Assembly (NCBI GenBank): GCA_964485645.1
Contig: CAZAMA010000007.1
Span: 1-52,159, forward strand
Length of the DNA stretch: 52,159 nt
Direction of reading: 5' to 3'
DNA from: an uncultured Acidimicrobiaceae bacterium
Lineage (GTDB): Bacteria > Actinomycetota > Acidimicrobiia > Acidimicrobiales > Bog-793
Numbering within the stretch: the first letter of the stretch is position 1; each line of letters begins with the position of its first letter. The translations under genes were made by a program, and so were the position numbers. This document shows positions 28,652 through 43,822 of this stretch, in pieces. The notes under the pieces were generated by a model. It saw only the letters and a list, made by a program, of their open reading frames with translations, ran no database searches and had not been told where the DNA came from.

Positions 28652-29334
28652 TGGCTGAAGAGACGAGCCCCGCGGGGACGCCACGGCGCCGGCGCCTCCG
28701 GTCCCTCTTCGGGTTCAAGGCGTTCGAGCAGTTCTTCCTCGCCGTCGCGCCGGACGTGACAGGGATGCTCGTCGCGCAAGGGGAGCTGAGCGTCGAGGCG
28801 ATGGCTGCTTTCGAACGGTGGTCGCGCGGAGACGTGGGGCCCGACGGGCTGAGCGGGCTCAAAGACCTCGAACAGGCCTGTGACGACGCCCGGCGCAGGC
28901 TCATGAGCGCGCTGCGGGGCGCTCTGGCGACTCCGATCAACCAGGAGGATCTCTACGTGCTCTCGGAGCGGTGCGATCGCGTCGTGAACGCCGCCAGGGA
29001 CATCGCGGCGGAAGCCACCGACCTCGGCTGGGCGCCGGACCCCCATGCAGCCGAGATGGCGAGGTGTCTTTCCGACGGCATGGTGGAGATCGTGAGGGGT
29101 TTCTCTTTGCTGCGAACCGACCCCGGCGGCGCCTCTGCGGCGGCCGACGGTGCCGTGCGTCACGCGCACCGGGTCGAGCACGCTTACCGGGTGGCCATGG
29201 CCGACCTTCTCAAGTCTCCCGACTTGCTCACCGTCTTCACGACGCGGGAGATCTACCGGCGCTACGGACGCTCGGCCGAGCTGCTCATCGCTCTCGGCGA
29301 CCGGCTCTGGTACTCGGTGCTAGCGGAGGCCTAG
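28651..29334 (+). CDS. DUF47 / PhoU-like PiT-associated protein
   Basis: The ATG overlaps the PiT stop (TGATG). Helical protein with the DUF47 pattern (DLYVLSERCDRVVNAARDIA...REIYRRYG). Confidence 0.75.
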   Translation: MAEETSPAGTPRRRRLRSLFGFKAFEQFFLAVAPDVTGMLVAQGELSVEAMAAFERWSRGDVGPDGLSGLKDLEQACDDARRRLMSALRGALATPINQEDLYVLSERCDRVVNAARDIAAEATDLGWAPDPHAAEMARCLSDGMVEIVRGFSLLRTDPGGASAAADGAVRHAHRVEHAYRVAMADLLKSPDLLTVFTTREIYRRYGRSAELLIALGDRLWYSVLAEA

Positions 29335-31043
29335 CCCTGCTCGGTCACCGGCGCGCCGGCGACCATGTCCGAGTCGCCGGTGAGGTCCCCGCGCGCGACG
29401 ACCCTGTGGCCCGCGACCCAGACGCCTTCGATGCCGACGGGGTACTCCCATGGTGACTCGAAGGTAGCCCTGTCGGCGATGACGTCCGCGTCGAACAGGA
29501 CGAGGTCACCGGGCAGGCCGGGGCGGATCTCGCCGAGCATGCCCTGCCATCCGACGACTCGTGCGGCCTGGGAGGTCACCTTGCGTACAGCCTCGGGCAG
29601 CGAAAGCGTCCCGAGCTCGCGCACGAAACGTCCAAGGACCCGAGGGAACGTCCCATGTAGGCGCGGGTGCGGGTGGCCCCCGTGGTCCACGACCGCGTCG
29701 GTGCCGATCGCGGTGTAGGGCTGCGCCATGAAGCGTGCGACGTTCTCCTCCACGTTGTTGAATGAGACGAGCGACATGGCGAGGTCCTCGGCGGCCAGGA
29801 GCGCGAAGATCGTGTCGAATGCGTCCTGGGAGCTCAGGTCTCCCACGCCGGCTGCGGAGATAACTTCTGCGAAGGACCGACCGACCAGTTCCGGCTTGCT
29901 GCACCTCGCCACTCTGAGGCCGCTCCAGCCGTCCGAGAAACGCCACCAGTTGTCCCACGACGTCGTGTCGTCGAGCAGCTGGAGGCGAAGCCGTGCCCGT
30001 ATCTGGGGGTCCGACAGCCGTGCTATCGCGGCCTCGTGGCCCCCGGCTTGGACCCAGGGGGGCAGCAGGACGATGGCAGAGGTGGAGCCGGCGACGTAGG
30101 GGTGGACGTCGGCAGAGATGCTCACGCCGGCAGCCTGTGCCGCGCCGATGTGCTCGAGCATCGCTTCGACCTTGTGCCAGTTGTCGCGACCCGCCGTCTT
30201 GATGTGGCTGTAGTGGAGGTGGCAGCCCGTGCGAGCGGCGACCTCGAGCACCTCGTCGGTTGCCTCGAGCACGCGATCGCTCTCCGAGCGCACGTGGACG
30301 AAGAAGGGCAGATCGCGCGCGGCCACTACCTCGCAGAGCGCGGCCACCTCGTCCGTCGTCGCATATGCCGCCGGGACGTAGACGAGACCCGTAGAGAAGC
30401 CCGCCCCGCCCTCGTCGAGTGCGGTTGCGAGCGCCTCCTGCATCGCGGCGATGTCGTTCGCGGTGGCCTCGCGGGCCGCATCGCCCATCACGAGTCGCCG
30501 GATCGTCGCGTGACCGACGAGGAGCGCAGTCCGGGTGGCGGACGCGGCGCGAATCGCCTGGCGGTACTCGCGAAAGGAGCGCCAAGTCCAGTCCTTGGCG
30601 GGAATCGAGCCGTCGAGACCAGCCAAGAAACCCATGTGGTCCTCCAAGTCCCCGTCGGCGACCGGCGCAGCCGAGATGCCGTCCTGCCCGAAGACCTGGG
30701 CGGTGCAGCCTTGCACCAACTTGGGCGAGTCTCCGATCGGGGGGGTTCCAGGCGACTCTCGCACGAGGGCATACAGGTCGGAGTGGGAGTGGAGGTCGAC
30801 GAAACCCGGCGCGAGCACGAGCCCGTTCCCATCGACGGTCGAGGCGACTGCGATCGGGGCCTTCCTGCCCGGAGCTCCGACAGAGACGATCATGCCACTG
30901 TCGTCCAATAGGACGTCTGCTTCGAAGGGGTCCGCTTCCGTGCCGTCTATGACAGTGGCTCCCCTGATCCACAGGGATTTGGAGCTGCGGTCCTGCCGAG
31001 TCAATGATCGGACTCCTTGGTTGCGCGTCGAGCTGCCGGACAT
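29331..31043 (-). CDS. D-aminoacylase-family (N-acyl-D-amino-acid deacylase-like) metal-dependent amidohydrolase
   Basis: LWIRGATVIDG...PGFVDLHSHSD metal motif and a large amidohydrolase fold. Its stop shares a CTAG tetranucleotide with the convergent DUF47 gene. Confidence 0.85.
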   Translation of the reverse strand: MSGSSTRNQGVRSLTRQDRSSKSLWIRGATVIDGTEADPFEADVLLDDSGMIVSVGAPGRKAPIAVASTVDGNGLVLAPGFVDLHSHSDLYALVRESPGTPPIGDSPKLVQGCTAQVFGQDGISAAPVADGDLEDHMGFLAGLDGSIPAKDWTWRSFREYRQAIRAASATRTALLVGHATIRRLVMGDAAREATANDIAAMQEALATALDEGGAGFSTGLVYVPAAYATTDEVAALCEVVAARDLPFFVHVRSESDRVLEATDEVLEVAARTGCHLHYSHIKTAGRDNWHKVEAMLEHIGAAQAAGVSISADVHPYVAGSTSAIVLLPPWVQAGGHEAAIARLSDPQIRARLRLQLLDDTTSWDNWWRFSDGWSGLRVARCSKPELVGRSFAEVISAAGVGDLSSQDAFDTIFALLAAEDLAMSLVSFNNVEENVARFMAQPYTAIGTDAVVDHGGHPHPRLHGTFPRVLGRFVRELGTLSLPEAVRKVTSQAARVVGWQGMLGEIRPGLPGDLVLFDADVIADRATFESPWEYPVGIEGVWVAGHRVVARGDLTGDSDMVAGAPVTEQG

Positions 31044-31141
31044 CTGTGTCCGCCTTTCGGCAACTGTACTGGCAGGGCTAGCTTCGCGAACGGGCCAAAC
31101 GACCCTATTCAGGCCCCCCGCCGCGAGAGGAAGATCGTCAC

Positions 31142-32095
31142 ATGAGAAGCTTTCTAGGTAGAGATATCCTGTCCCTCAAGGACATGGAACGGGAGGAGTT
31201 CTTCCAGATCTTCCGTGTCGCCGAGACGCTCAAGCCTTATGCCGCCGAACGGCGCAACGGAGATCTGCTCAAGCACAAGACCCTGCTCACGGCTTTCTAC
31301 CAGCCGAGCACGCGCACGCGGCTGGCGACCGAGGCAGCGATGCACCGTCTCGGCGGCCACGTGCTCGGGTTCTCCGACGCCAAGATGACGCGAGCCGGCG
31401 ACTTCTACCAGGAGTCCATCAAGGACACCGTCCACATGCTCGAGTACTACGGTGACGTGATCGCGATGCGCCACTTCCAGCAGGGTGCCCCAGACGAGGC
31501 GGCCCGCTGGGCTTCGGTTCCCGTGATCAACTGCGGTGACGGCTGGGGCGAGCACCCGACCCAGGTGCTGACCGACCTCTACACGATCTGGCAGCAGCGC
31601 GGCACCCTCGACGGCATGAAGATCCTGCTTGTCGGGGACATGAGGATGCGTACGATGCACTCGATCCTCTACGCAATGTCGCAGTTCGACCTCGAGGGTT
31701 TCGTCGTGTCACCGCCGGACATGTCTCTTACAGAGGAATTCAAGGCCGATCTCGACGGGCGCAGCGTCCAGTACCGCGAGGTCGAGAGCGTGGAGGCGTG
31801 CATCGCGGATGCGGACGTGATCTACATGGAGCCGGTCGTACAGGCCGACTACACCCAGTCGCGCGTCGAGGCGAGCGGCGAGCGAGGCGGCACGCCGGCG
31901 GCATATCGGGTGACGCGCGAGCTTCTCGCGGCCAGGGCGAAGACGGACTCGATCATCTTGCACTCCCTGCCGCGCATGGACGAGCTGCCGCCCGACGTGG
32001 ACAGCACTCGCCATGCCCGCTACTGGGTGGAGGCGTTCAACGGCGTTGTCATGCGCATGGCCCTTTTGTCCCTCGTCCTCGGAGCGACGGAGTAG
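31142..32095 (+). CDS. Aspartate-carbamoyltransferase-family (PyrB-like) protein
   Basis: STRTR, HPTQ, the GDMRMRTMHS segment, HSLPR, and a C-terminal FNGVVMRMALLSLVLG typical of ATCase catalytic chains. Confidence 0.85.
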   Translation: MRSFLGRDILSLKDMEREEFFQIFRVAETLKPYAAERRNGDLLKHKTLLTAFYQPSTRTRLATEAAMHRLGGHVLGFSDAKMTRAGDFYQESIKDTVHMLEYYGDVIAMRHFQQGAPDEAARWASVPVINCGDGWGEHPTQVLTDLYTIWQQRGTLDGMKILLVGDMRMRTMHSILYAMSQFDLEGFVVSPPDMSLTEEFKADLDGRSVQYREVESVEACIADADVIYMEPVVQADYTQSRVEASGERGGTPAAYRVTRELLAARAKTDSIILHSLPRMDELPPDVDSTRHARYWVEAFNGVVMRMALLSLVLGATE

Positions 32096-32102
32096 ACAGC
32101 CC

Positions 32103-33080
32103 GTGCAGACTCATCTTCGTGGCCGCGACCTCATCGACCTGCAGGAGTGGACCAAGGGCGAGGTGGACACCCTCCTCGACGTCGCCTTCCAGCTGAAGCG
32201 CGAGAGAGCCCTCGGCATCGCCCATCCTCTCCTGCGGGACAAGGTGCTCGCGATGCTGTTCTTCTTCGCGAGCACGCGGACCCGGGCCTCCTTCGAGGCC
32301 GGCATGGCCCAACTCGGCGGTCATGCCCAGTTCATCGAGAGCCGCACGACCCAGATAGCCCACGGCGACACCGCGAAGGAGATCGGCGAGATACTCGGCC
32401 GCTACAACGACGGCATCGCCATTCGCCAGGTCGACTGGGGCGTCGGCAACCAGTACCTGCGCGACGTCGCCGCAGCCAGCCGGGTGCCGGTGCTCAACAT
32501 GCAATGCGACGTCTACCATCCCCACCAGGCCCTCGGCGATCTCATGACAATCATCGAGCGATTCGGCGATCCGAGAGGGCGTACTGCCACGATCAGCTGG
32601 GCACACGATCCCTCCTACCTAAAGCCCATAAGCGTCGCGCAGAGCCTGCTCCTGCTGCTGCCGCGATTTGGGATGAACGTGCGCCTCGTCCATCCGCCGG
32701 AGTTCCCCCTTCTGCCCGAGATCGTGGAGCAGGCGAGGGAGAACGCCCGCGTCGGCCATGCGGGCTTCGAGCAGATGGATGACTTCGAAGCCGGCTTCGT
32801 CGGCACCGATGTCGTCTATGCCAAGAGCTGGGGCGCCATGGTCACGACGTCCGACGAGGCGGAGGACACGCGTCTGATCAACAAGTACGCTTCGTGGATG
32901 ACAGACACGCGTCACATGGAGACGGCGAGCGAGGATGCCGTATTCATGCACCCTCTGCCTGCAGACCGCAATGTCGAGGTCACCGACGACGTCATCGACG
33001 GACCGCGCTCGGTCGTGTACGACCAGGCGGAGAACCGCCTGCACGGCCAGAAGGCCGCGATGGCGCTGACGATGAGCTGA
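32103..33080 (+). CDS. YgeW-type (knotted) carbamoyltransferase
   Basis: STRTR, QIAHGDTAKE, MQCDVYHPHQALGDL, ISWAHDPSYLKPISVAQSLLLLLPRFGMNV and HPLPADRN. By my recollection of E. coli YgeW, this matches closely. GTG at 32103 lies 7 nt after the PyrB-like stop. Confidence 0.8.
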   Translation: MQTHLRGRDLIDLQEWTKGEVDTLLDVAFQLKRERALGIAHPLLRDKVLAMLFFFASTRTRASFEAGMAQLGGHAQFIESRTTQIAHGDTAKEIGEILGRYNDGIAIRQVDWGVGNQYLRDVAAASRVPVLNMQCDVYHPHQALGDLMTIIERFGDPRGRTATISWAHDPSYLKPISVAQSLLLLLPRFGMNVRLVHPPEFPLLPEIVEQARENARVGHAGFEQMDDFEAGFVGTDVVYAKSWGAMVTTSDEAEDTRLINKYASWMTDTRHMETASEDAVFMHPLPADRNVEVTDDVIDGPRSVVYDQAENRLHGQKAAMALTMS

Positions 33081-33083
33081 TCG

Positions 33084-34040
33084 GTGAGCACAGATCGGCC
33101 CCGGACGGCTGTAGTAGCCATCGGTGGCAACTCGCTTATAAAGGACTCCTCGCACCAGAGCGTGCAGGACCAGTACGTCGCGGCCAAGGAGACGTGTCAC
33201 CACATCGTCGGGATGATCCGCCACGGCTGGAACGTCGTCATCGCGCACGGCAACGGGCCGCAGGTCGGTTTCATCCTCCGACGCTCCGAGCTCGCGGCAG
33301 GCGAGCTGCACGAGGTCCCCCTCGACGTGTGCGGTGCCGACAGCCAGGGCGCCATCGGATATGCGCTCCAGCAGAACCTTGCCAACGAGTTCCGCCGCTA
33401 CGGCATGGACCGCCATGCTGCCACCGTCATCTGCCAGACCGAGGTGAGGGCCGACGACCCGGCTTTTGCTCATCCGAGCAAGCCGATCGGCTCCTTTATG
33501 GACGAGAAGATGGCCGAGATGCGCCGACAGCAGGGCTGGGAGCTGATAGAGGACGCCAACCGAGGCTGGCGGCGGGTCGTGGCCTCGCCTACCCCCGTGC
33601 GGATCGTGGAGCTGTCGGCGATCTCCTCTCTCGTCGCGGCCGGTGTCGTCGTCATCACTGCGGGCGGTGGCGGCATACCGGTGATCTCTCGGGAGGACGG
33701 CGATCTCGAAGGGGTGGCGGCCGTGATCGACAAGGACCTCGCGTCGGCGCTCCTTGCCACCGCTCTCGGGGCTGAGCTGTTGCTCGTCTCGACGGCCGTC
33801 GAGAAGGTCGCGCTCAACTTCGGGCGCCCTGAGCAGAGCTTCGTGGACCGGCTCACAGCTTCGGAGGCCCGGAGGTACCTGGGCGAGGGGATACATTTCG
33901 CGGTCGGCTCCATGGCTCCGAAGATCCAAGCCGTGCTCAATTTCCTCGATAACGGGGGGACGGAGGCGATCGTGACCGATCCTGCCAACGTCGAGCGCGC
34001 GCTTGCCGGTGAGACCGGGACTCACTTCGTGCCCGGATGA
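33084..34040 (+). CDS. Carbamate kinase
   Basis: AVVAIGGNSL...VIAHGNGPQVG...ITAGGGGIPV motifs. Starts 3 nt after the YgeW-like stop. Confidence 0.9.
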   Translation: MSTDRPRTAVVAIGGNSLIKDSSHQSVQDQYVAAKETCHHIVGMIRHGWNVVIAHGNGPQVGFILRRSELAAGELHEVPLDVCGADSQGAIGYALQQNLANEFRRYGMDRHAATVICQTEVRADDPAFAHPSKPIGSFMDEKMAEMRRQQGWELIEDANRGWRRVVASPTPVRIVELSAISSLVAAGVVVITAGGGGIPVISREDGDLEGVAAVIDKDLASALLATALGAELLLVSTAVEKVALNFGRPEQSFVDRLTASEARRYLGEGIHFAVGSMAPKIQAVLNFLDNGGTEAIVTDPANVERALAGETGTHFVPG

Positions 34041-34041
34041 G

Positions 34042-35589
34042 CTAGCTCGGCACGACTCCTGCCATGAGGAGCCCGACCGCCTCGCGAGTCGAGGTGCGCG
34101 GGTCCGCCGAGCCGATGACCCGGCCCTCGTACATGACAAGGACGCGGTCTGACAAGGACATGACCTCGTCGAGGTCCTCGGAGATGATGAGGACGGCCGT
34201 GCCTGCGTCGCGTTGCTCCACGAGGCGCTCGTGGATGTAGTGGGCAGCACCGACGTCGATACCCCGAGTCGGTTGTGCCACCAGCAGCACGCGCGGCCTG
34301 CCGGAGAGCTCACGAGCCATGATCAGCTTTTGGATGTTGCCACCAGAGAGGTTCCGCGCCGGGGTGTCGAGGGACGGGGTCTTGACCGCGAACGCTTCGA
34401 CGAGCTCCTGGCAGTGCCTCTTGATCGTCCGGGCGCGCAGGAAGCCGAGATGGGAGAAGGCGGGATGCCCGCTGTCGACGAGCATGAGGTTCTCGGCGAC
34501 GCTGAAGTCGGGCACGATGCCGTCGCGCATGCGCTCCTCGGGGACGTAAGCGAGCCCCGCCGCGCGCACCTCGGACGGCGGGGAGCCGAGCACCTCCTTG
34601 CCGTCTATGAGGACCGAGCCGCCCTCGGACGCACGGATGCCGGCGACGGCCTCGGCCAGCTCTCGCTGGCCGTTGCCCGACACGCCCGCGATGCCCACGA
34701 TCTCCCCTGACTCGACGGCAAGGTCGACACCGCGTACCGCCTCCTGTCCCCGGTCACCTCGTACGGTGAGACCCGACAGCACCAGGCGCTTGTCGCCTCC
34801 TGCCGCCGCCGCCGGACGAACATCCGCGGAGATGGCGTGGCCGACCATCATCTCGACGAGGCTCTCCCGCGAGGCGTCCTTGCGCGACAAGGTGCCGACG
34901 CGCCGCCCTGCGCGAAGCACCGTGATGCGGTCGGAAAGCCCCAGCACTTCGTTGACCTTGTGGGAGATGAACACGAGACCGCGTCCCGCGGCGGCGAGCT
35001 GGCGCAGAACCCTGAAGAGGTCGTCGACCTCGTTCGGGGTGAGCACGGCAGTCGGCTCGTCGAGGACGAGGATGTTGGCATCCCTGTAGAGGGCCTTCAG
35101 GATCTCGACGCGCTGGCGCTCTCCGACGGACAGCTGCCAGACGAGGGCATCGGGATTCACCTTGAGGCCGTGGCTGTCGGCAAGCTCGCCGACGCGCTTT
35201 GCGACGCGCCGCAAGTCCGTGAGCGGGCCGCGCGACGACTTGAGCCCGAGCGCGACGTTCTCGACGACCGTGAGGGTGTTGACGAGCATGAAATGCTGAT
35301 GGATCATCCCGATGCCCTGGCGGATGGCGGCCGCCGGCGACGAGATCACGGTCACCTCGCCGTTGATCGCGATCTCGCCCTCGTCGGGCCGGTAAAGGCC
35401 GTAGAGCACTCTCATGAGCGTGCTCTTGCCGGCGCCGTTCTCTCCGAAGAGAGCGTGCACCTCGCCGGCGGCGAGCTCGAAGTCGACGCCGTCGTTCGCG
35501 AGCACGCCGGGGAAACGTTTGGTGATGGCGCTCATCTGGAGGAGCGGTACAGGCTCCTCCAGATGAGCAAGTGTGCCCGGCAGCGTCAT
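34042..35589 (-). CDS. ABC transporter ATP-binding protein with two fused NBDs (sugar/nucleoside CUT2 type)
   Basis: GENGAGKST / LSVGERQRVEI / LVLDEPTAVL, plus a second NBD with LSGGNIQKLIM. Confidence 0.9.
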   Translation of the reverse strand: MTLPGTLAHLEEPVPLLQMSAITKRFPGVLANDGVDFELAAGEVHALFGENGAGKSTLMRVLYGLYRPDEGEIAINGEVTVISSPAAAIRQGIGMIHQHFMLVNTLTVVENVALGLKSSRGPLTDLRRVAKRVGELADSHGLKVNPDALVWQLSVGERQRVEILKALYRDANILVLDEPTAVLTPNEVDDLFRVLRQLAAAGRGLVFISHKVNEVLGLSDRITVLRAGRRVGTLSRKDASRESLVEMMVGHAISADVRPAAAAGGDKRLVLSGLTVRGDRGQEAVRGVDLAVESGEIVGIAGVSGNGQRELAEAVAGIRASEGGSVLIDGKEVLGSPPSEVRAAGLAYVPEERMRDGIVPDFSVAENLMLVDSGHPAFSHLGFLRARTIKRHCQELVEAFAVKTPSLDTPARNLSGGNIQKLIMARELSGRPRVLLVAQPTRGIDVGAAHYIHERLVEQRDAGTAVLIISEDLDEVMSLSDRVLVMYEGRVIGSADPRTSTREAVGLLMAGVVPS

Positions 35590-35618
35590 CTATGCCTCCG
35601 GGCCTGTTACCTGATGGA

Positions 35619-36641
35619 TCACGCCGGGACCTTGATCTTGTTGTGCTCGATCGCCGTGATGAGCGCCAGCGCCTTGGCCTTCACCGATTTCGCCAGCTTG
35701 TAGCCGGAGTTGAACTGGATCTGCTCGCCGCCGTTGCCGAGCTTTAGGACATAGGTCGCGCCGCCGCGCTTTCCCGCGCGGATGTCCTTGATCATCGCGA
35801 CGAGCGTTGGCTTCCAGTTGTAGAGCTGGGAGGAGACGACGTTCTTCGGCGCCAGGACGGCCTGGGTCCACTGGGTCCCGAACCAAGGGATGTTGTCGGC
35901 TTTGGCTACACCGATAGCACCTACGACCGACTGCGAGCTGCCTGTGAGGACGTCCGCGCCGTCGGAGACGAACGTCTTCGCGGCAGTTGCCATGAGGCTG
36001 TCGTCGCTGAAGGAGCCCGTGTAGACCGTGTGAGCCGTGATCTTCTTGTCCTCCGCCTTGGCACCCGCGACGAAGCCGTCTACGTAGAGCTTCGCGTCGC
36101 CGGTCGCGATCGGTCCGATCACGCCGAGCACGTGGGACTTGGACAGCATGGCTCCCATGTAGCCCTGGACATAGCCGCCCTCGTTGGAGGCGGCCTCGTA
36201 GGCAAAGATGTTCTTCTTCCCGAACGTGGAGGCTGCCGTGCCCCAGGCGAAGGAGACCTTCGGGAACTGCGAGGCGAGAGCTTCCACGGTCGAGCCGTAC
36301 TGCGATCCGTGGGCAAGGATGAGGTTGTAGCCCTCGGAGGCGTACTCGCGGATGACATTTGCCGCGTCGGCGACGACGAACTCGTTCTCCGATACCGAGA
36401 TCTGCAGGTGCTGCGAGCTCTTGAGCGATTCGAGCGCGCTGTACATCGACTGGGTGAACGCGAGATCGTTCGTGGCGCTCGGCGCGACGAGGGCAACTCG
36501 CAGCACCTTTACCGATGCTGGGCGTGCGCTGGTCGACGGGCCCGGGCGGCCTGCGGCGCTACTGCTGCCCACGGCCATCGTGAGGGCCATGGCCACGACG
36601 GCGACCGGCACCGCGACCTTGCTTAATAGATGTGTTGGCAT
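35619..36641 (-). CDS. BMP-family (PnrA/Med-like) ABC substrate-binding protein, nucleoside type
   Basis: Signal peptide and the BMP pattern (VALVAPSATNDLAFTQS...GYNLILAHGSQYG...). Confidence 0.9.
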   Translation of the reverse strand: MPTHLLSKVAVPVAVVAMALTMAVGSSSAAGRPGPSTSARPASVKVLRVALVAPSATNDLAFTQSMYSALESLKSSQHLQISVSENEFVVADAANVIREYASEGYNLILAHGSQYGSTVEALASQFPKVSFAWGTAASTFGKKNIFAYEAASNEGGYVQGYMGAMLSKSHVLGVIGPIATGDAKLYVDGFVAGAKAEDKKITAHTVYTGSFSDDSLMATAAKTFVSDGADVLTGSSQSVVGAIGVAKADNIPWFGTQWTQAVLAPKNVVSSQLYNWKPTLVAMIKDIRAGKRGGATYVLKLGNGGEQIQFNSGYKLAKSVKAKALALITAIEHNKIKVPA

Positions 36642-36726: not shown

Positions 36727-37659
36727 TCAGTCACCTCTCTCGTACGGCTTGCCGAGAACGGCGGGCTGGCGGAAGCGGCGCGCCACCAAGAGCAGCGTGA
36801 GGATGGTTATCACTGCCGGCGCGGTCGCCGCGAGATCCGAGGCGCTGAGCGGTATGATCCCGAGCGACTTCCAGGAGAGCACGACAGCGATCGCGAGGCC
36901 GTAGAGGACCGAGCCACCCATGACCCCGAGCGGGCGCCAGGCACCGAAGTAGACGAGGGCGACTGCGATGAAACCTTCGCTCTGGGTGAGGTTCTCCATG
37001 AATATCCCGTCGTAGAGCAGGAGCGCCGCTCCCGCGAGCCCTGCCATGGTGCAGCCGATGAGGACTGTCGACCAGCGGATGCGAGCGACGCTTATGCCGA
37101 CGGTGTCGGCGGCGGAGGGGTTCTCGCCTGCCGCGCGGATCTTGAGGCCGTAGGTCGTGCGGTTGAGCACGAAGGTGAAGACAGGCACGAGAACAAAGGC
37201 CAGGTAGACGAGGATCGTCTGCTTGAACAACATCGCACCGACCGCGGGTATCTGGTCGAGCAGCGGGATGCCGATCGGTGACAGCTGGGATATCGGCAGC
37301 GGTGTGCCTACGAGCTTCAGGAAGAGAAGGTCACTCAGTCCGAGCCCGAACAGGTAGACCCCGATTCCGCTGATGCCCTGCTCTGCTTTCAAGGTGACGC
37401 TTATGAAGGCGGTGATCACTCCCATGACGAGCCCGACGCCCGCACCGGCGAGCACTGCAAATACGAGGTTGCCGGTCTTGAGCGCAGTGAAGTAGGTGGC
37501 AAAGGCGGACAGCAGCATGATCCCGTCGACACCGAGGTTGATGACTCCACTGCGCTGGCCCATGGTCTCGCCGAGGGCGGCGAAGAGGAAGGAGCTGGAC
37601 AGGGCGATTGCCGCAGCCACGGTGGAGGTGAGGACCGCGTAGGTGAAGAAGTGGTCCAC
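36727..37659 (-). CDS. ABC permease (BMP/CUT2 system, second membrane component)
   Basis: Multi-TM BPD_transp_2-like profile. Starts 4 nt downstream of the preceding permease stop. Confidence 0.85.
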   Translation of the reverse strand: MDHFFTYAVLTSTVAAAIALSSSFLFAALGETMGQRSGVINLGVDGIMLLSAFATYFTALKTGNLVFAVLAGAGVGLVMGVITAFISVTLKAEQGISGIGVYLFGLGLSDLLFLKLVGTPLPISQLSPIGIPLLDQIPAVGAMLFKQTILVYLAFVLVPVFTFVLNRTTYGLKIRAAGENPSAADTVGISVARIRWSTVLIGCTMAGLAGAALLLYDGIFMENLTQSEGFIAVALVYFGAWRPLGVMGGSVLYGLAIAVVLSWKSLGIIPLSASDLAATAPAVITILTLLLVARRFRQPAVLGKPYERGD

Positions 37660-37662
37660 GAG

Positions 37663-38907
37663 TCAACCCCCTTCGCGCGATGCGGGAGCCGCGGGCGCAA
37701 GTGATGCGGGAGCCGCGGGCGCAAGTGATGCGGGAGCCGCGGGCGCAAGTGATGCGGGAGCCGCGGGCGCAAGCGATGCGGGAGCCGCGGGCGCAAGCGA
37801 TGCCGTACGGGCTCGCCTGCGCATGTACTCGAGGGACACGACGAAGACCACGACCAGGCCCTCGAGGGTCGTCACGAGGTCCGGGGGCACCCCGGTGGCG
37901 ACCTGCAGAGCGTCTCCGCCGGTGAGCAGCCCCCCGAAGAGGAAGGACGAGATGATGCTCCATAGCGGGCTCAGCCCCCCGAAGAGGGCCACTACTATCC
38001 CGTTGAAGCCGTCGGACCCGGTGAATCCGGTCAGGCTCCCGTCGGTGACCATACGGTGGGCGAGGCTGCCGAACACGAGCATCGCGCCGCCCATGCCGCA
38101 CATCGCGCCGCTCAACGTCATCGCCAGCACCATCGTCCGCTTGACCTTGATGCCGGCGTAGTTCGAAGCGTCCCGTGACATCCCGACGGCCCGCAGCCGA
38201 AAGCCCAGGCCGGTGTGCCAGAGGAGCACGTAGGTCCCGACCGCCGCGAGCACGGCGACGAGCACGCCCAGGTTCAGCTGGGTCCCCGGGACGAGGATGG
38301 GCAGCCACGAGCTGTGGGGGAGAAGCCGCGTCTCGGGAATGAGACCGAAGGTCGAGTTCTGGGTGGTGTCCACCAAGGGTCCAGCCAGGAGGTAGTTCAT
38401 GAGCTGTACGGCCACGAGGTTGAGCATGATCGTGCTGAGGATCTCGTTCACGTTGAAGTACGCCTTGAACGCTCCCGGGATGGCACCCCAGCCAGCGCCA
38501 CCAGCCGCCCCGGCGAGGAGCACGAGAGGTATGAGCACGATGCTCGGCAGGTTCGGCAGCGCGAGCGCGGTCGCCGCGCTTGCGAGGCCACCCATAGCCA
38601 GCTGGCCCTCCCCCCCGATGTTGAACATGCTGGCGCGAAACGAGATGCAGATCCCGACCCCGACGAAGAGCAGCGGCCCGGCTCTCGCGGCGCTCGCGCC
38701 GAGCGCGTAGCTCCCGACGAAGGCCCCGTCGAAGAGGGCGTGGTAGCCCGATATCGGGTTCACGCCGAGAAGCAGCATCATGACCGCTCCGAGCAGGAGT
38801 GCCGCGAGCAGCGAGGCGGGCAGCGCGAACCAGCTGAGGATGATGGTCTCCCAGCTGACGCGCCGCGCTGCGAGCCCTACTTGCGGCTCTGCACCCCCTG
38901 CCGGCAT
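37663..38907 (-). CDS. ABC permease (BMP/CUT2 system, first membrane component) with a repeat-containing C-terminal tail
   Basis: Multi-TM profile. The C-terminus is 5 x SLAPAAPA, encoded by the 24-nt tandem repeat. Confidence 0.85.
   Translation of the reverse strand: MPAGGAEPQVGLAARRVSWETIILSWFALPASLLAALLLGAVMMLLLGVNPISGYHALFDGAFVGSYALGASAARAGPLLFVGVGICISFRASMFNIGGEGQLAMGGLASAATALALPNLPSIVLIPLVLLAGAAGGAGWGAIPGAFKAYFNVNEILSTIMLNLVAVQLMNYLLAGPLVDTTQNSTFGLIPETRLLPHSSWLPILVPGTQLNLGVLVAVLAAVGTYVLLWHTGLGFRLRAVGMSRDASNYAGIKVKRTMVLAMTLSGAMCGMGGAMLVFGSLAHRMVTDGSLTGFTGSDGFNGIVVALFGGLSPLWSIISSFLFGGLLTGGDALQVATGVPPDLVTTLEGLVVVFVVSLEYMRRRARTASLAPAAPASLAPAAPASLAPAAPASLAPAAPASLAPAAPASREGG
37679..37803. 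repeat. In-frame tandem repeat, 24 nt x 5.2 (GATGCGGGAGCCGCGGGCGCAAGT/C)
   Basis: Read directly. Copies 1-3 are identical. Copies 4-5 differ only at the last base (T to C). Confidence 0.95.
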
Positions 38908-39091
38908 CGAATTCCTCCTAAGCCTCGCCTGGCCCTATCTCGCGCTCTCGGTGCCCGAGCTGGGACCCTGCTTGGTCGACAGAGGAAAGGCTAAGGAAAG
39001 CCGTCACGGCCACAAAGGGCCGAAGGACCCTTTTAGCGGGCCTCCAGCGCGCCGTTGGGCGCTTGGAGCCGGCCGGTGGGACAATGGGCAC

Positions 39092-41704
39092 ATGACCGAG
39101 TTCACCCTCAATGGAAAGCTGGTCGAAGTCGGCGAGCACGCCAATCTCCTCGCCGCGCTGCGCGAGGAGCTGGACATCACGTCGCCAAAGGACGGGTGCT
39201 CACCGTCGGGACAGTGCGGTTGCTGCACGGTGCTCGTGGACGGCAAGGCTCTGATCAGCTGCAGCGTCTCGCTCGCCCGGGTCGCCGGCAAGTCGGTGAC
39301 GACGCTCGAGGGCTTCGAAGCGACAGAGCGCGAGCGCTTCGCGCGGGCTTTCTCGTCGACGGGCGCCCTGCAGTGCGGTTTCTGCACGCCCGGGATCGTG
39401 GTGCGCCTCAAGGCCCTCTTGGACAAGAAGGGCACCGACCTGACGCGAGAAGACGCCGCCCGCCATCTCGGTGCTCATCTCTGCCGCTGCACGGGCTACG
39501 CGAAGATCCTCGACGCGGTCGAGCTGCTCGCGAGCGGAGCTCCGATTGACGCCCCGGCCGACGCGGGAAGCGGGGCAGGCGGCAAGGGCGGCGGCGGATC
39601 CGGCATCGGAGCCCGGGTGCCGAAGTACGAGAGCCTCGAGCTCGCTCTTGGCGATCGGGCTTACGTGGACGATCTCCGCGTGCCCGGGATGCTGCATGGG
39701 GCGCTTCGGCTGGCCGATCATGCCCGGGCCGACGTCGTGGCGATAAAGACGGCTGCGGCTCTTGATGCCCCGGGCGTCGAGGCGGTCTTCACTGCCGCAG
39801 ACGTTCCCGGGGCCCTGCGAGTCGGCATCATCGAGACCGACTGGCCCGTCTTCATTCCTGCAGGAGGTCGGACCTCGTATCTCGGCGACGTGCTCGCTCT
39901 GGTGGTCGCGAGGTCGGTAGCCGAGGCTCGCGCTGCCGCGAAGCTCGTCGAGGTCGAGTACCGGCCGCTGCGGCCCATCACAGACGCCGTCGCGGCTCTC
40001 GAGGACGCCGAGGACGCCGTCTGGCAGCTCGACGGCAACGTCCTCTCCCGGTCGAACTACCGCCGCGGCGACGTCGATGCCGCTCTGGCTGCATCGGCGC
40101 ACACGGTGCACGAGGTCTTCCAGACCCAGCGAGTCGAGCACGCGTTCTTGGAGCCGGAGTCGACGCTCGCGGTGCCCGAGGCTGACGGCGTGCTCAGGGT
40201 CTACTCCGGCGGTCAGGGAACCTGGGACGATCGCAACCAGATCGCTTCGGTTCTGGGCGTCGCCGAGGACCGTGTCGTGGTCGAGCAGGTCTCGAACGGC
40301 GGGGCCTTCGGGGGCAAGGAGGACATGGCCAACCAGGCTCAGACCGCGCTTGGCGCGTTCCTCCTCGATCGACCGGTGAAGTGCACGCTCTCGCGCGAGG
40401 AGTCCTTTCTCCTGCACCCCAAACGCCACCCGATCCGCCTCGAGTACTGGGCCGGATGCGATTCGCGCGGAGTGCTGAGCGCGATCAGGGCGCGCATGGT
40501 AGGTGACTCGGGACCGTACGCCTCGGTCGGCATGAAGGTCCTCGAGCGAGCCGCAGGTCACGCGTCGGGGCCCTATACCGTACCCGCCATCGACGTCGAG
40601 TCGGTGGCGGTGCGCACCAACAACTCGGTTTGCGGGGCATTTCGTGGCTTTGGCGCGAACCAGGCGCAGTTCGCGATGGAAGGCGTCATGGACCGGCTCG
40701 CCGAGAAGGTCGGCATCTCGGGACTAGAGATTCGCCGCCGCAACGCGATCGGGCCCGGCTGTCTCTGGGGGCCGGGCCAGGAGATGGACGACGGCTCACG
40801 CGGGGTGCTCGCGTGCCTGGAGGCGGTCGCGCCGGCCTACGAGGCCGCTGTCGCCGCGGGCAAGGCTGTCGGCCTTGGCCTCGGCATAAAGAACGCCGGT
40901 CTCGGCAACGGCCTCGAGGAGATCGCCGAGGCGGTCGTGCGTTTCGACGAGACCGGTGGAGTCGAGGTGAGGCACTGCTGGACCGAGATGGGTCAGGGCA
41001 TCCACACCGTCGCCCTGCAGGTGGCGGTCGAGGAGCTCGGAGTCGATCCGGCAAGGGTCCGAGTCGTCGTCGACACGACACGAGAGATCGGGGCCGGCCA
41101 GACGACCGGCTCCCGAGGCACGATGCTCGGTGCCGGCGCTATCGCGGACGCGTGCCGGAACGCGCTCGGCGACGGGTGCAAGCCCGGGATCGACTACAAG
41201 GGCGAGTTCCGCATCAACTGGACCAACTCGCTCTACGAGGGAGTCGAGAAGCCGGTCATCCACTCGGCCTTCTCCTACGCGGCGCAGCTGGTGGTGATCG
41301 ATCGTGAGACGAGCGGGATCGAGAAGGTCGTCGCGGTCCACGACGTCGGGCGTGCGGTCAACCCCATGCTGTGCGAGGGCCAGATAGAAGGAGCGGTGCA
41401 CATGGGGCTCGGCTATGCGCTGTCCGAGGAGTTCCCGACCGACAGCGAGGGACGCCCGACCCACATGACGCTTCGGAGCCTCGGAATCCTTCGGGCAAAG
41501 GACGTTCCCTTGATCGAGCCGCTGCTCGTCGAGGTCCCGCAACCCCGCAGCCCGTATGGCATAAAGGGGATGGGCGAGATCGGCCTCGTACCGACTGCCG
41601 GCGCGGTGGCCGCGGCACTCCACGATCTCGACGGCGAGTGGAGGGTCACTCTCCCCATGCGATTTGCGGCAGGCGTGGCCTCGGCAAGTGGGCCGGAGGA
41701 CTGA
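39092..41704 (+). CDS. Xanthine-dehydrogenase-family molybdoenzyme with fused N-terminal double [2Fe-2S] domain and no FAD domain (XdhD / Mop-like architecture)
   Basis: CSPSGQCGCC...C and CGFCTPG...CRCTGY Fe-S motifs, a Gly-rich linker, and a Mo domain with GGAFGGKE and KGMGE. ATG 39092 lies within the longer ORF 38780..41704. Confidence 0.85.
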   Translation: MTEFTLNGKLVEVGEHANLLAALREELDITSPKDGCSPSGQCGCCTVLVDGKALISCSVSLARVAGKSVTTLEGFEATERERFARAFSSTGALQCGFCTPGIVVRLKALLDKKGTDLTREDAARHLGAHLCRCTGYAKILDAVELLASGAPIDAPADAGSGAGGKGGGGSGIGARVPKYESLELALGDRAYVDDLRVPGMLHGALRLADHARADVVAIKTAAALDAPGVEAVFTAADVPGALRVGIIETDWPVFIPAGGRTSYLGDVLALVVARSVAEARAAAKLVEVEYRPLRPITDAVAALEDAEDAVWQLDGNVLSRSNYRRGDVDAALAASAHTVHEVFQTQRVEHAFLEPESTLAVPEADGVLRVYSGGQGTWDDRNQIASVLGVAEDRVVVEQVSNGGAFGGKEDMANQAQTALGAFLLDRPVKCTLSREESFLLHPKRHPIRLEYWAGCDSRGVLSAIRARMVGDSGPYASVGMKVLERAAGHASGPYTVPAIDVESVAVRTNNSVCGAFRGFGANQAQFAMEGVMDRLAEKVGISGLEIRRRNAIGPGCLWGPGQEMDDGSRGVLACLEAVAPAYEAAVAAGKAVGLGLGIKNAGLGNGLEEIAEAVVRFDETGGVEVRHCWTEMGQGIHTVALQVAVEELGVDPARVRVVVDTTREIGAGQTTGSRGTMLGAGAIADACRNALGDGCKPGIDYKGEFRINWTNSLYEGVEKPVIHSAFSYAAQLVVIDRETSGIEKVVAVHDVGRAVNPMLCEGQIEGAVHMGLGYALSEEFPTDSEGRPTHMTLRSLGILRAKDVPLIEPLLVEVPQPRSPYGIKGMGEIGLVPTAGAVAAALHDLDGEWRVTLPMRFAAGVASASGPED

Positions 41705-41707
41705 GCC

Positions 41708-42730
41708 ATGTCCAGCAGCTCTGAGACTCCTGGCCTCGTCTGTGCTCACCACCACCTCTACTCGACTCTCGCTCGTGGGATGCCGGCTCCTCCACGGGTG
41801 CCTCACGACTTCACCTCGATTCTCGAGCTCGTCTGGTGGCGGCTCGACAGAGCTCTCGATTTCGAGATGATCCGCTGGTCTGCCATGCTCGGCGCTCTCG
41901 AGGCCCTCGAGCGCGGCACGACTGCCATCGTCGACCACCATGCCTCGCCCAATGCCATCGAGGGCTCGCTCGATGTCGTCGCCCAGGCCTGCGAGGCGGT
42001 CGGGGTGAGGTCGTCGTGCTGCTACGAGGTCACCGACCGTAACGGTGCAGCCGGCATGGAGGCGGGGCTCGCCGAGAACGAGCGTTTCCTGAAGGCGGGT
42101 GGCAAGGGCTTTGTCGGGGCGCACGCATGCTTCACGCTCTCTGAGGCGAGTCTCGAGGCGGTGGCGGGCCTCGCGTCCGATCTCGGGACCGGCGTGCACA
42201 TCCATGTCTGCGAGGGCAGCGTCGACGACAAAGCCGGGGAGAGGCTCGAGAAACTTGCTCAGGACAGCTGGCTGCTGGCGCACTGCGTCCATCTGGATCG
42301 CCCGCTGCGCGGCACCATCGCGCACAACCCGCGCTCGAACATGAACAACGCCGTCGGCTACGCCCGCCCGGCGCGATGGCACAACACCGTCGCGCTCGGC
42401 TCCGATGGCATCGGCGCCGACATGCTCGAAGAGTTCCGCATCGCCTATGTGCGCCATCGGGAGGACGACGTGACGGCGACGCCGCTCTCGGCGTGGTCGT
42501 GGCTTGAGGGTGGATACGAGCTCGTGCCGGAAGCCAGGACCGACACGGTGACGTGGAGCTATGAGCCAGTGGATCCTTGGCACCTCGCTTTCACGCCAGG
42601 TGTCCGGCCGCTCGAGGTGACAGTCGGCGGCGAGGTGGTCCTGCGGGACGGCCTGCCGACGAAGGTGGATCCACTGGAGGTGAGAGCCCGTGCTCGCGAG
42701 CAGGCTGCTCGGCTCTTCGCTCTTCTTTGA
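41708..42730 (+). CDS. SsnA-like amidohydrolase (short form)
   Basis: CAHHHLYS, LVWWRLDRALD, IVDHHASP and HNPRSNMNNAVGY. These match my recollection of E. coli SsnA. Only 340 aa; starts 3 nt after the XdhD-like stop. Confidence 0.8.
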   Translation: MSSSSETPGLVCAHHHLYSTLARGMPAPPRVPHDFTSILELVWWRLDRALDFEMIRWSAMLGALEALERGTTAIVDHHASPNAIEGSLDVVAQACEAVGVRSSCCYEVTDRNGAAGMEAGLAENERFLKAGGKGFVGAHACFTLSEASLEAVAGLASDLGTGVHIHVCEGSVDDKAGERLEKLAQDSWLLAHCVHLDRPLRGTIAHNPRSNMNNAVGYARPARWHNTVALGSDGIGADMLEEFRIAYVRHREDDVTATPLSAWSWLEGGYELVPEARTDTVTWSYEPVDPWHLAFTPGVRPLEVTVGGEVVLRDGLPTKVDPLEVRARAREQAARLFALL

Positions 42731-42787
42731 CCTGCAGACACATCCGGTGGCATTTCGTCTCGCCGCGGGCGCGGCTGTAGCCCGGCG

Positions 42788-43822
42788 GTGATGGCGCGCC
42801 CGCACGTGCTCGTGACGAGGCGACTGCCTCTTGCGGTCATGGACCGACTGGCCCTGCACTGCCAGGTGTACTGCTGGCCCGAGAGCACTGCGATGCCTCG
42901 CGACGTGCTGCTCGACTTGGCGAGCGGGCAGCAGGCCCTCGTCACGGTGCTCACGGACCGGGTGGACGCGGACCTGCTCGAGGCCGCGGGCCAGCAGCTC
43001 CGCATCGTCGCGAACTACGCCGTGGGGTTCGACAACATCGACGTTGCCGCTTGCAGCGAGCGCTCGGTGATGGTCACCAACACCCCCGACGTCCTCACCG
43101 AGGCCACCGCCGACATGGCCTTTGCCCTGATGATGGCTGCCGCGCGAAGGGTGGTCGAGGGCGACGGCCTGTTGCGCTCGACCGCTTTGTGGCTCTGGGG
43201 CCCCGAGATGATGCTGGGGCAGGACGTCTACGGAAGGACCCTCGGGATCATCGGGTTGGGGCGGATCGGCAGAGCGGTCGCCGCGAGGGCGGCTGGCTTC
43301 TCGATGCAGGTCGTGCACCACAATCCCGTCCGCTCCGCGCCACTTGCAGGCGCCGGGGCCCCACCTCTCGGCTCCGGCGCCGGACCACCGGGCTCGGAGT
43401 CGGTGGACTTGGAGCATCTCCTCGCCGTCTCGGACTTCGTCTCCATCCACGTCCGGCTGAGCGACGAGACGCACCATCTGATCAACGCCGAGCGGCTTTT
43501 GCTGATGAAGCCGACGGCCGTGCTCGTGAACACCTCACGCGGTCCCGTCGTCGACGAGGAAGCCCTTGCAGACGCGCTCGAGAGCGGTCGTCTCTTCGCC
43601 GCGGGCCTCGACGTGTTCGAGCGCGAGCCGGTGGTGTCGCCGCGACTGCTCGCGCAGTCGCGAGCCGTGCTGAGCCCGCATCTCGGAAGTGCGACTGTCA
43701 GCACGAGAGTGGCCATGGGCATGCTGGCGGTCGAAAACGTCCTTGCAGCCCTCTCCGGCCAGCGGCCCCCGACGCTTCTCAACAGCGAGGTCTGGGAGCG
43801 GTCGCAGCCGGGCGAACCGTGA
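42788..43822 (+). CDS. D-2-hydroxyacid dehydrogenase (glyoxylate/hydroxypyruvate reductase-like)
   Basis: GIIGLGRIGRAVA NAD fold, VNTSRG and a catalytic H in LSPHLGSAT. There is a Gly/Pro/Ala-rich insertion after HHNP. Confidence 0.85.
   Translation: MMARPHVLVTRRLPLAVMDRLALHCQVYCWPESTAMPRDVLLDLASGQQALVTVLTDRVDADLLEAAGQQLRIVANYAVGFDNIDVAACSERSVMVTNTPDVLTEATADMAFALMMAAARRVVEGDGLLRSTALWLWGPEMMLGQDVYGRTLGIIGLGRIGRAVAARAAGFSMQVVHHNPVRSAPLAGAGAPPLGSGAGPPGSESVDLEHLLAVSDFVSIHVRLSDETHHLINAERLLLMKPTAVLVNTSRGPVVDEEALADALESGRLFAAGLDVFEREPVVSPRLLAQSRAVLSPHLGSATVSTRVAMGMLAVENVLAALSGQRPPTLLNSEVWERSQPGEP

Follow-up and report, generated by a model that had tools for sequence, protein, structure and literature searches.

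The reductive breakdown of urate is encoded in Escherichia coli K-12 in a neighbourhood that carries xdhA-C, ygeW, ygeX, ygeY, hyuA, yqeA, ygfK, ssnA, ygfM and xdhD together, and the pathway was reconstituted in two 2025 studies (PMC12507026; bioRxiv 10.1101/2025.04.24.650524). In this study we compare with it an island of genes on a 52,159-nucleotide stretch of DNA from an uncultured Acidimicrobiaceae bacterium (assembly GCA_964485645.1, contig CAZAMA010000007.1, positions 1 to 52,159), which as a whole we call the window. An earlier note on this DNA had read the island as an actinobacterial variant of urate clusters of the ygeW/yqeA/ssnA/xdhD type, which the gene contexts and closest homologues described below bear out, and had called the pathway poorly resolved, which since the two reconstitutions it no longer is. 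The route starts with the conversion of urate to 2,8-dioxopurine (“yanthine”), carried out by XdhD-YgfM or, in Clostridia, by XdhAC; the product is then reduced by YgfK, by UacX in C. difficile, or by a putative F420-dependent luciferase-like (LLM) enzyme in Chloroflexota. The ring is opened by SsnA and then HyuA acts, giving 2,3-diureidopropionate. One ureido group is phosphorolysed by YgeW, coupled to carbamate kinase and ATP, or in C. difficile is hydrolysed instead by the D-aminoacylase homologue UacY; YgeY hydrolyses the other group, and YgeX converts diaminopropionate to pyruvate (PMC12507026; bioRxiv 10.1101/2025.04.24.650524). Which ureido group YgeW attacks is disputed, and a review counts among the open questions in which order the two groups are cleaved and what donates electrons to XdhAC-type enzymes (PMC12990295). 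Li et al. reported that the C. difficile “XdhD” is ~26% identical to E. coli XdhD, and found F420-type variants in Chloroflexota in a sequence-similarity network and SsnA homologues in Actinomycetota (PMC12507026).

We consider it probable (about 0.68), judging from sequence comparison, that the island at ~24.66-42.73 kb is a rewired and, within the window, incomplete Acidimicrobiales version of the reductive (2,8-dioxopurine) urate cluster. The link to urate rests on gene identities, synteny, purifying selection and a cross-phylum association with urate-pathway genes. The core genes lie in three tightly packed transcription units, with strands and gaps as first described, on which the map of open reading frames (ORFs) and the junction sequences agree. 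The first unit, on the plus strand, consists of a gene like aspartate carbamoyltransferase (ATCase; 31142-32095), a compact YgeW-type carbamoyltransferase gene (32103-33080) 7 nt further on, and, after a gap of 3 nt, the gene for carbamate kinase, the YqeA equivalent (33084-34040). A single nucleotide separates the stop of the kinase gene from that of a convergent ABC ATPase gene (34042-35589, minus strand), which ends an importer operon transcribed in the order permease (37663-38907), permease (36727-37659), BMP substrate-binding protein (35619-36641), ATPase. The third unit, again on the plus strand, holds a gene for a fused 2x[2Fe-2S]/molybdopterin hydroxylase of 870 residues (39092-41704), whose start we place at the ATG at 39092 rather than at the upstream ORF start at 38780, and, 3 nt downstream, a short-form SsnA-like amidohydrolase gene of 340 codons (41708-42730). 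Divergent from the carbamoyltransferase operon is a gene for a D-aminoacylase-family amidohydrolase (29331-31043, minus strand). Pfam and NCBIfam uphold the domain assignments of the island genes. The G+C content of the window is 63-70%, and the closest homologues of the island proteins all come from Acidimicrobiales metagenome-assembled genomes (MAGs), so the label “actinobacterium-like” was correct. The arrangement is syntenic in close relatives and is therefore not due to chance, and the ratio of nonsynonymous to synonymous substitutions (dN/dS) against three relatives is 0.03-0.23 for the island genes, with one exception discussed below. Such purifying selection indicates that the island is in use and not decaying.

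Like the E. coli cluster (PMC12507026), the window has a Mo hydroxylase beside an SsnA-type enzyme, a YgeW-type gene followed by carbamate kinase, and purine-type transporters nearby. Unlike it, the window has a Mo enzyme outside the XdhD clade with no YgfM FAD subunit, an SsnA without the N-terminal 55 residues, and a carbamoyltransferase 70 residues shorter than YgeW. It is without YgfK, HyuA, YgeY and YgeX, and has an additional ATCase-like transcarbamylase and a D-aminoacylase-family hydrolase. The XdhAC of C. sporogenes (DOPDH) is, like the window's Mo enzyme, a fused Fe-S/Mo protein of ~850-870 residues without FAD, an architecture that points to an electron donor other than NAD(P)H. With the UacX/UacY variant of C. 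difficile the window probably shares a hydrolase of the D-aminoacylase family (the UacY family, PF07969); in C. difficile UacY replaces YgeW and carbamate kinase, whereas in the window the putative homologue coexists with two transcarbamylases and the kinase. In contrast to Clostridial clusters, the window lacks selD, yqeB, yqeC, UacX and YgfK. The F420-type variant, found in Actinomycetota and relatives and represented in complete form among our loci by L012 and L013, has orthologous ATCase-like, YgeW-type, carbamate kinase and NCS1 genes. These two loci, and not the window, also have a Mer-like LLM gene, full-length SsnA, HyuA, PLP (pyridoxal phosphate) enzymes and 8-oxoguanine deaminase, and L012 has XdhD and YgfM, where the window has a TIGR03311-type Mo enzyme and the short SsnA. 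Finally, the island resembles modules of the arginine deiminase type (catabolic ornithine carbamoyltransferase, OTCase, plus carbamate kinase) in passing from ureido phosphorolysis through carbamoyl phosphate to ATP; the difference is that its substrates would be purine-derived ureido-diaminopropionates instead of citrulline, and that two transcarbamylases feed one kinase.

The association with urate-pathway genes emerged from a scan of one genome per species (80 loci returned, roughly 600 found in all; neighbours of the 80 annotated by tblastn), in which 34 loci from many phyla with a carbamoyltransferase at least 40% identical to the window's were compared with 49 ordinary ornithine carbamoyltransferase (OTC) loci. 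Carbamate kinase was a neighbour at 21 of the 34 family loci and at one of the 49 ordinary ones. Genes of the xanthine dehydrogenase (XDH) type and ATCase-like genes were each found at 16 family loci, a CysK-like PLP enzyme at 14, SsnA at 11, and 8-oxoguanine deaminase and YgeY at 10 each, all of them at none of the ordinary loci, while HyuA was present at 7/34 and 2/49, respectively. In cultured Fodinibacter luteus (L012), the YgeW-type gene is part of an 11-gene operon that begins with 8-oxoguanine deaminase, two PLP enzymes, full-length SsnA and LLM, and continues with ATCase-like (81%) and YgeW-type (81%) genes, carbamate kinase, a YgfM-like gene, an XdhD-like gene (36% identical to E. coli XdhD) and HyuA. 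In Dormibacteria (L013), the same trio of two carbamoyltransferases and kinase is accompanied by YgeX, LLM, SsnA, HyuA and an NCS1 permease. Measured against both loci, the window's genes are 81-86% (ATCase-like), 81-87% (YgeW-type) and 63-76% (carbamate kinase) identical.

The carbamate kinase scores 390 bits on NCBIfam NF009007 (cut-off 266) and is 49% identical to E. coli YqeA, and the idea that it forms an ATP module with a carbamoyltransferase is plausible. The gene before it had been called YgeW-like. In favor of that name, its protein shares with YgeW, and not with ArgI, the motifs QIAHG(D/E)T, GxGNxY, QCDxxHPxQ, SYxKPxSVxQ and YxKSW, and in the alignment YgeW-type motifs stand in place of the ornithine-binding D231...SMG region of ArgI. 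On the other hand, it is 33% identical to E. coli YgeW and equally distant from the structures of OTC and N-acetylornithine carbamoyltransferase (AOTC), misses the cut-offs of the YgeW equivalogs TIGR03316 (158.8 vs. 500 bits) and NF005538 (174.2 vs. 453), and passes no curated NCBIfam equivalog model, OTC included. With 325 residues against 396 in YgeW, it is without the YgeW insertions and the C-terminal extension. Members of its family from Actinomycetota and Dormibacteria share at least 80% identity. By its sequence, this second carbamoyltransferase is a compact YgeW-type enzyme and not a YgeW equivalog.

ATCase binds aspartate (E. coli numbering) through Lys84, Arg167, Arg229 and Gln231, with Arg229 as the ligand of the beta-carboxylate. 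The first carbamoyltransferase of the operon, initially described as PyrB-like, resembles archaeal ATCases and passes the ATCase model TIGR00670 (252.7 vs. a cut-off of 236.95), and in the alignment with E. coli PyrB its carbamoyl-phosphate site and Arg167 are intact. In those respects the name fits, and at the aspartate site it does not: Lys83 is replaced by Asp, Lys84 by Tyr, and Arg229 by Pro beside a five-residue insertion, while Gln231 is ambiguous. The changes at Lys84 and Arg229 are invariant in five sequences, from Acidimicrobiales, Fodinibacter, Dormibacteria, Chloroflexia and Atribacteria. With this combination of kept and lost residues, the protein still looks built for binding an alpha-amino acid, though without residues by which ATCase holds aspartate. 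Among the 34 family loci, the ATCase-like gene occurs without YgeY in 15, YgeY without the ATCase-like gene in nine, both in one and neither in nine; the slot immediately 5' of the YgeW-type gene is taken by the ATCase-like gene in 11 loci and by YgeY in five. This near-exclusive occurrence, together with the altered amino-acid site, supports the view that the ATCase-like gene is probably a non-orthologous, in-place displacement of the hydrolase YgeY by a second phosphorolytic enzyme. ATCases yield N-alpha-carbamoyl amino acids, and the M20 enzymes related to YgeY include N-carbamoyl-amino-acid hydrolases. On this background, the displacement would fit the order of Liu et al., with the YgeW type acting on the 3-ureido group and YgeY or the ATCase-like enzyme on the 2-ureido group. 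In the source genomes, homologues of the genes at 31142-33080 go by the names of aspartate carbamoyltransferase and ornithine (or N-acetylornithine) carbamoyltransferase. As their substrate sites are altered, both names are probably wrong, a systematic mis-annotation across hundreds of genomes.

If those names were right, the trio could be anabolic, the carbamate kinase serving as a carbamoyl-phosphate synthase that feeds an ATCase and an OTCase as in Pyrococcus, with the purine genes adjacent by chance. The best solved relatives of the two carbamoyltransferases are indeed the archaeal ATCase 1ML4 (234 bits) and the Pyrococcus OTCase 1PVV (196 bits), and the pass on TIGR00670 points the same way. 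We nevertheless regard this explanation as highly improbable: the ATCase-like enzyme lacks Lys84 and Arg229, the ornithine motif of OTC has given way to the YgeW-type YxKSW motif, the ATCase-like gene takes the position of YgeY, and the strong cross-phylum association with urate-catabolic genes has no parallel at ordinary OTC loci.

The Mo enzyme has the Pfam domains Fer2_2, Ald_Xan_dh_C and MoCoBD_1/2 in the FAD-less 2x[2Fe-2S]+Mo architecture. It narrowly misses the cut-off of TIGR03311, “selenium-dependent XDH” (798.2 vs. 830.45), and scores lower on other models (pucD 447, MOP-type 409, and 182 bits on the XdhD-type TIGR03313); with 24% identity to E. coli XdhD and 31% to XdhA, the description as XdhD-like has to be given up. 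By sequence the enzyme is of the TIGR03311 type, probably close in kind to Clostridial XdhAC, and we infer that it is a dehydroxylase that would convert urate to 2,8-dioxopurine. Domain scans of the window gave none of the selenium-cofactor genes selD, yqeB and yqeC, and the sole AIRS-family gene is the hypE of a hyp cluster. The pairing of the Mo gene with the SsnA-like gene is kept in L002-L010, L015 and L021. Homologues of the Mo enzyme, 45-50% identical, belong to urate-type clusters in L017, L021 and L039, and another in L049 is found without SsnA. In L017 (Streptosporangiaceae), the Mo gene is followed by SsnA, LLM, ATCase-like, YgeW-type and carbamate kinase genes; in L039 (Clostridia), the homologue (45%) is in a cluster with SsnA, YgeX and YgeY. 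In L021 (a Chloroflexia MAG; 33-5900, minus strand), the Mo gene and a short SsnA, 69% identical to that of the window, are followed by a YgfK homologue with no LLM gene, so the short SsnA works with either kind of reductase. TIGR03311-type enzymes and XdhD-type enzymes with YgfM thus stand in for each other in one context, which speaks for a common role.

The protein encoded after the Mo enzyme has SsnA as its best NCBIfam family (270 bits; the next family reaches 73) and aligns as far as the C-terminus with E. coli SsnA (residues 56-434), at 34% identity. It retains all the conserved positions (H62, H64, H200, H225, H227, E230, H264 and D312 in E. coli numbering), which upholds the first assignment as SsnA-like, if not as an SsnA equivalog. 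It falls below the cut-offs of TIGR03314 (254 vs. 455.5) and NF005540 (270.5 vs. 444), its match covers profile positions 58-335 only, and it is a short form, without the first ~55 residues, the N-terminal beta-sandwich strands and four internal segments of SsnA. A search of its sequence against the PDB gave no match at 1e-8. Its AlphaFold2 model (pLDDT 90) has the amidohydrolase fold, with a TM score of ~0.82 to ATZ/TRZ-type deaminases. We considered that the gene might be a truncated pseudogene and rejected this, because the family has a length of ~340 residues in at least 120 homologues, the catalytic positions are kept, dN/dS is ~0.1 and the fold is confident. The short SsnA would be the ring-opening hydrolase of the cluster.

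The properties of these two proteins have also to be weighed for a different N-heterocycle or ureide as substrate, e.g. xanthine opened by xanthinase-like hydrolysis, orotate or another pyrimidine, with nothing but enzyme families shared with the urate pathway. Carbamoyl-aspartate is an intermediate of orotate fermentation. The low identity of the Mo enzyme to XdhD and XdhA, its score below the TIGR03311 cut-off, the atypical SsnA and an ATCase-like enzyme that passes an ATCase model could all be read in this sense, and a reductase-free xanthinase route is known in Clostridia (Tong et al. 2023, as cited in PMC12507026). Against it, orthologues of the two carbamoyltransferases (65-87%) occur with bona fide XdhD/YgfM, full SsnA, HyuA and YgeX, in clusters that also hold the urate-forming 8-oxoguanine deaminase; with Arg229, the ATCase-like enzyme has lost the residue that binds the beta-carboxylate of aspartate; and neither a dihydroorotase nor a dihydroorotate dehydrogenase gene turned up in the island. 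Another substrate therefore seems quite unlikely to us. The earlier suggestion that substrate and intermediates may differ from the described route is likewise disfavored, since the context points to urate and the same ureido intermediates, handled by other enzymes.

From NCS1 through the short SsnA, the layout of the window recurs in its closest relatives, L006-L010 and L015, whose proteins are 93-99% identical. In three other Acidimicrobiia loci (L002-L004, 70-82% identity), a Mer-like F420-type LLM gene comes right after the Mo-enzyme/short-SsnA pair, on the opposite strand in L002, and in L003 and L004 the next gene is a guanine-deaminase-like (ATZ/TRZ-type) amidohydrolase similar to the 8-oxoguanine deaminase of L012. 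These LLM genes, that of L002 at 11051-12055, are closely knit orthologues with 61-78% identity between the lineages compared; an LLM gene downstream in L009 was rejected as the orthologue (27% identity). HyuA is present in L012 (15692-17098), L013 and L016, and YgeX in L013 (529-1674). In the window, by contrast, tblastn with E. coli proteins (E <= 1e-3) gave no ygeX, ygeY, hyuA, ygfK or ygfM, which for the first four agrees with what had been noted from the ORFs. There is no LLM orthologue either, and none of the ORFs scanned has a DHO_dh domain. Neither a reductase nor HyuA, a diaminopropionate lyase or the PLP pair described below, nor 8-oxoguanine deaminase, is encoded in the window or in the 20-kb contexts of the closest relatives. 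At least 12 contigs with a short SsnA also have an LLM orthologue, and none of the best 120 LLM homologues is from a window-like contig. Since sister lineages encode the missing steps within the cluster, the cluster of the window is incomplete.

One explanation is that the lineage has lost ring reduction, hydantoin opening and diaminopropionate deamination, and that the island is a scavenging module. The ureido intermediates or ureides of neighbours would be imported via NCS1 and/or the ABC system, their carbamoyl groups turned into ATP and NH3, and the substrate of the Mo enzyme and short SsnA would be one that does not have to be reduced first. In line with such a loss, reductase, HyuA and PLP lyase are absent both in the window and in the 20-kb contexts of the closest relatives, and none of the best 120 LLM homologues was traced to window-like contigs; moreover, two uptake systems and a phosphate transporter lie around the carbamoyltransferases, and the genes that are retained are under purifying selection. 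We judge it unlikely all the same, as the pair of Mo enzyme and short SsnA adjoins LLM or YgfK in every other lineage examined, and the missing genes may lie outside the 52-kb window.

The cluster reading is supported in its extent by a shared upstream motif. The pattern AAnGGGYMRAASGACYCT is matched three times in the 52 kb at up to 2 mismatches, with 0.11 matches expected, a count that is partly circular because the pattern was first built on two sites and then widened to the third, that of NCS1; there are no other copies. All three copies are on the plus strand: at 24664-24681, ~105 nt 5' of the NCS1 start; at 31089-31106, 36 nt 5' of the ATCase-like start; and at 39014-39031, ~60 nt 5' of the Mo-enzyme start, where it forms the near-palindrome AAAGGGCC-GAAG-GACCCTTT. 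The three sites are at the same positions in L015, and the site of the Mo gene is kept in L002, L006-L010 and L015. This suggests a shared operator or leader element, by which the NCS1, carbamoyltransferase and Mo-enzyme units would form one regulon, and sets the left border of the island at ~24.66 kb. The left edge as first described had been drawn too far to the right, for the island extends to the NCS1 permease and the phosphate transporter. An Rfam scan of the whole 52-kb window gave no match, and a scan for promoter and terminator consensus sequences gave matches no more often than chance.

The genes added in this way are in part transporters. The NCS1-family nucleobase/ureide:cation symporter (24788-26284, plus strand; Pfam Transp_cyt_pur, NCBIfam ncs1) is 73% identical to the NCS1 protein of the urate-type cluster of Dormibacteria (L013), and NCS1 genes are also found in L015 and L016. 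The PHO4/Pit-type inorganic phosphate transporter (27638-28651, plus strand; Pfam PHO4 2.5e-40, start codon checked) is syntenic in L015 and would supply phosphate for phosphorolysis. It is followed by the gene of a 227-residue protein (28651-29334, plus strand) that has no Pfam or NCBIfam match and is possibly a PhoU/DUF47-like partner of the Pit transporter; it has a weak PDB match to the PhoU-like 3L39 (E 0.18), is syntenic in L015 and has a dN/dS of 0.18. By its domain matches, the ABC importer is a four-gene set of the BMP/PnrA type. Transporters with a similar ATPase stand beside members of the carbamoyltransferase family in L026, L034 and L044, and BMP-like binding proteins in L030 and L044. 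The D-aminoacylase homologue (Pfam Amidohydro_3, PF07969) scores ~220 bits to the D-aminoacylases 1M7J/1RJP/3GIQ and is in the same divergent position in L015 and L016. Of six catalytic or metal residues, five (H67, H69, H220, H250 and D366) are retained, while the bridging Cys96 is changed to Asp, and there is a larger insert between residues 322 and 424. Its likeness to C. difficile UacY is at the level of the family, PF07969.

From these parts, the following route can be proposed. Purine, urate or a ureide would enter the cell through the NCS1 permease, the BMP-type ABC importer or both, and the FAD-less fused Fe-S/Mo enzyme would strip the 6-oxo group from urate to give 2,8-dioxopurine. 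A dearomatising reductase would act next, an F420-type LLM or YgfK in sister lineages and none encoded in the window, after which the short SsnA would open the ring and a hydantoinase step (HyuA, not in the window) would lead to 2,3-diureidopropionate. There, the compact YgeW type would phosphorolyse one ureido group, and the ATCase-like enzyme, in place of YgeY, the other, probably the N-alpha one. Carbamate kinase would turn both carbamoyl phosphates into ATP, with inorganic phosphate from the adjacent Pit-type transporter. With one kinase and two carbamoyl phosphates, the yield would rise from 1 to as many as 2 ATP per urate. The D-aminoacylase-family enzyme may be a hydrolytic alternative for one ureido cleavage, and the step from diaminopropionate to pyruvate would be encoded elsewhere, if the whole pathway runs. 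That two hitherto uncharacterised transcarbamylases, one of the compact YgeW type and one derived from ATCase, between them turn the two ureido groups of 2,3-diureidopropionate into carbamoyl phosphate is to us about an even chance. That, in addition, ring reduction and hydantoin opening are bypassed or carried out by enzymes without homology to those described, so that the Mo enzyme without FAD, the minimal SsnA and the D-aminoacylase-like hydrolase make up a new front end, is a combination we think rather improbable.

Several observations weigh against assigning the island to the reductive urate pathway. The window encodes neither a reductase (YgfK, UacX or LLM) nor HyuA, and a PLP lyase, be it YgeX or another, is missing as well. 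The SsnA-like, YgeW-type and TIGR03311-type proteins all fall below the curated NCBIfam cut-offs, which the carbamate kinase and the ATCase-like protein pass. The best solved relative of the Mo enzyme is the aldehyde oxidoreductase of D. gigas. In the scheme above, the D-aminoacylase homologue would be redundant with a transcarbamylase, which makes the role given to it there tentative. Lastly, the exclusivity of ATCase-like and YgeY genes (Fisher p = 0.008) was calculated from loci counted without phylogenetic correction.

Other genes in and around the island are less closely tied to it. A divergent protein with the phosphoglycerate kinase (PGK) fold is encoded by a solitary gene at 26377-27516 (minus strand), between those of the NCS1 permease and the phosphate transporter, and its membership of the island is uncertain. 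It matches Pfam PGK with 154 bits and its best PDB PGK with 110 bits, with only the nucleotide-binding half well conserved. The layout shared by L006-L010 and L015 includes this divergent gene together with the PHO4 transporter and the 227-residue protein, while the synteny check of the gene itself found it in L015 only. No other island gene has a dN/dS as high as its 0.44. Its product could act as a kinase on some other acyl phosphate. The D-2-hydroxyacid dehydrogenase gene that follows the short SsnA (42788-43822, plus strand; glyoxylate/hydroxypyruvate-reductase-like by its domain matches) had been counted as a member of the set. Conservation of the neighbourhood holds from NCS1 through the short SsnA and stops there: the dehydrogenase is not in the clusters of L006-L010 and L015 and is displaced in L002, and by its gene context it is an accessory gene and no core member. 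The Mo enzyme, the short SsnA, the dehydrogenase and a small ORF after it are in one reading frame with single TGA stops between them. Read-through or selenocysteine insertion at the TGA codons at 41702-41704, 42728-42730 and 43820-43822 was rejected, as the proteins match their families end to end, and we judge the shared frame a coincidence, TGA being the usual stop at such G+C content.

The small ORF (43874-44122, plus strand) encodes a Cys-rich protein of ~82-99 residues with a CxxC...C...C pattern (“...RCDTCRYYLEPYNDISYCWHPKLRILVGSRWWCQWWEE”). Counterparts, 75-94% conserved, are found at 18840-19121 in L002, 11126-11374 in L006 and 11137-11388 in L009, in this lineage always after the Mo-enzyme/short-SsnA unit. 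It has no Pfam or NCBIfam match, and might be a redox or metal partner or be unrelated. Directly 3' of the island is a [NiFe]-hydrogenase maturation cluster (44196-49283) with hypC (44196-44468), hypD (44515-45642), hypF (45559-48006, minus strand) and hypE (48021-49283, minus strand), then an SIS-domain gene and a HupF/HypC-like gene; in L006-L008, this cluster almost abuts the short SsnA. Upstream of NCS1, at 23076-24572, are a gene for a VanA-like Rieske oxygenase (plus strand) and one with an AsnC-type ligand-binding domain (24303-24572, minus strand), both of which keep their synteny in L015. The small AsnC-like protein, a candidate regulator, has no obvious DNA-binding domain.

Two features of the related clusters in other genomes are of interest for the pathway at large. 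The CysK-like PLP enzyme (~498 residues) is often paired with a threonine-synthase/dehydratase-like enzyme of ~458 residues (7/34 loci), as at 3728-6612 in L012; such PLP enzymes are also found in L016, L019-L023, L026, L028, L029, L036, L038, L045 and L049, and the window has no such pair. L012 and most other loci with these enzymes are without a YgeX homologue, and the PLP enzymes may replace diaminopropionate ammonia-lyase or have a new role. In addition, the gene at 2338-3708 in L012 passes the NCBIfam 8-oxoguanine deaminase equivalog (589 vs. 532 bits) and is a member of nine other loci. Its frequent presence suggests that oxidised guanine, besides urate, feeds such pathways.

Three things in the island are new compared with the systems described so far: a second transcarbamylase derived from ATCase, a family of minimal SsnA proteins, and a cluster that is split. 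The variant with two transcarbamylases is described neither in PMC12507026, bioRxiv 10.1101/2025.04.24.650524 and PMC12990295 nor in the titles and abstracts listed by a search for the pathway intermediates. The pathway was solved in 2025 only in gut anaerobes, and its modules are widespread, in mix-and-match form, in environmental Actinomycetota, Chloroflexota and Dormibacterota. The ATCase-derived enzyme in the YgeY slot may be an independent clue that the YgeY step concerns the N-alpha-ureido group and the YgeW type the 3-ureido group. If it is true that both ureido groups are captured, this would double the substrate-level ATP yield of urate breakdown, and would be relevant to the engineering of uricolytic probiotics.

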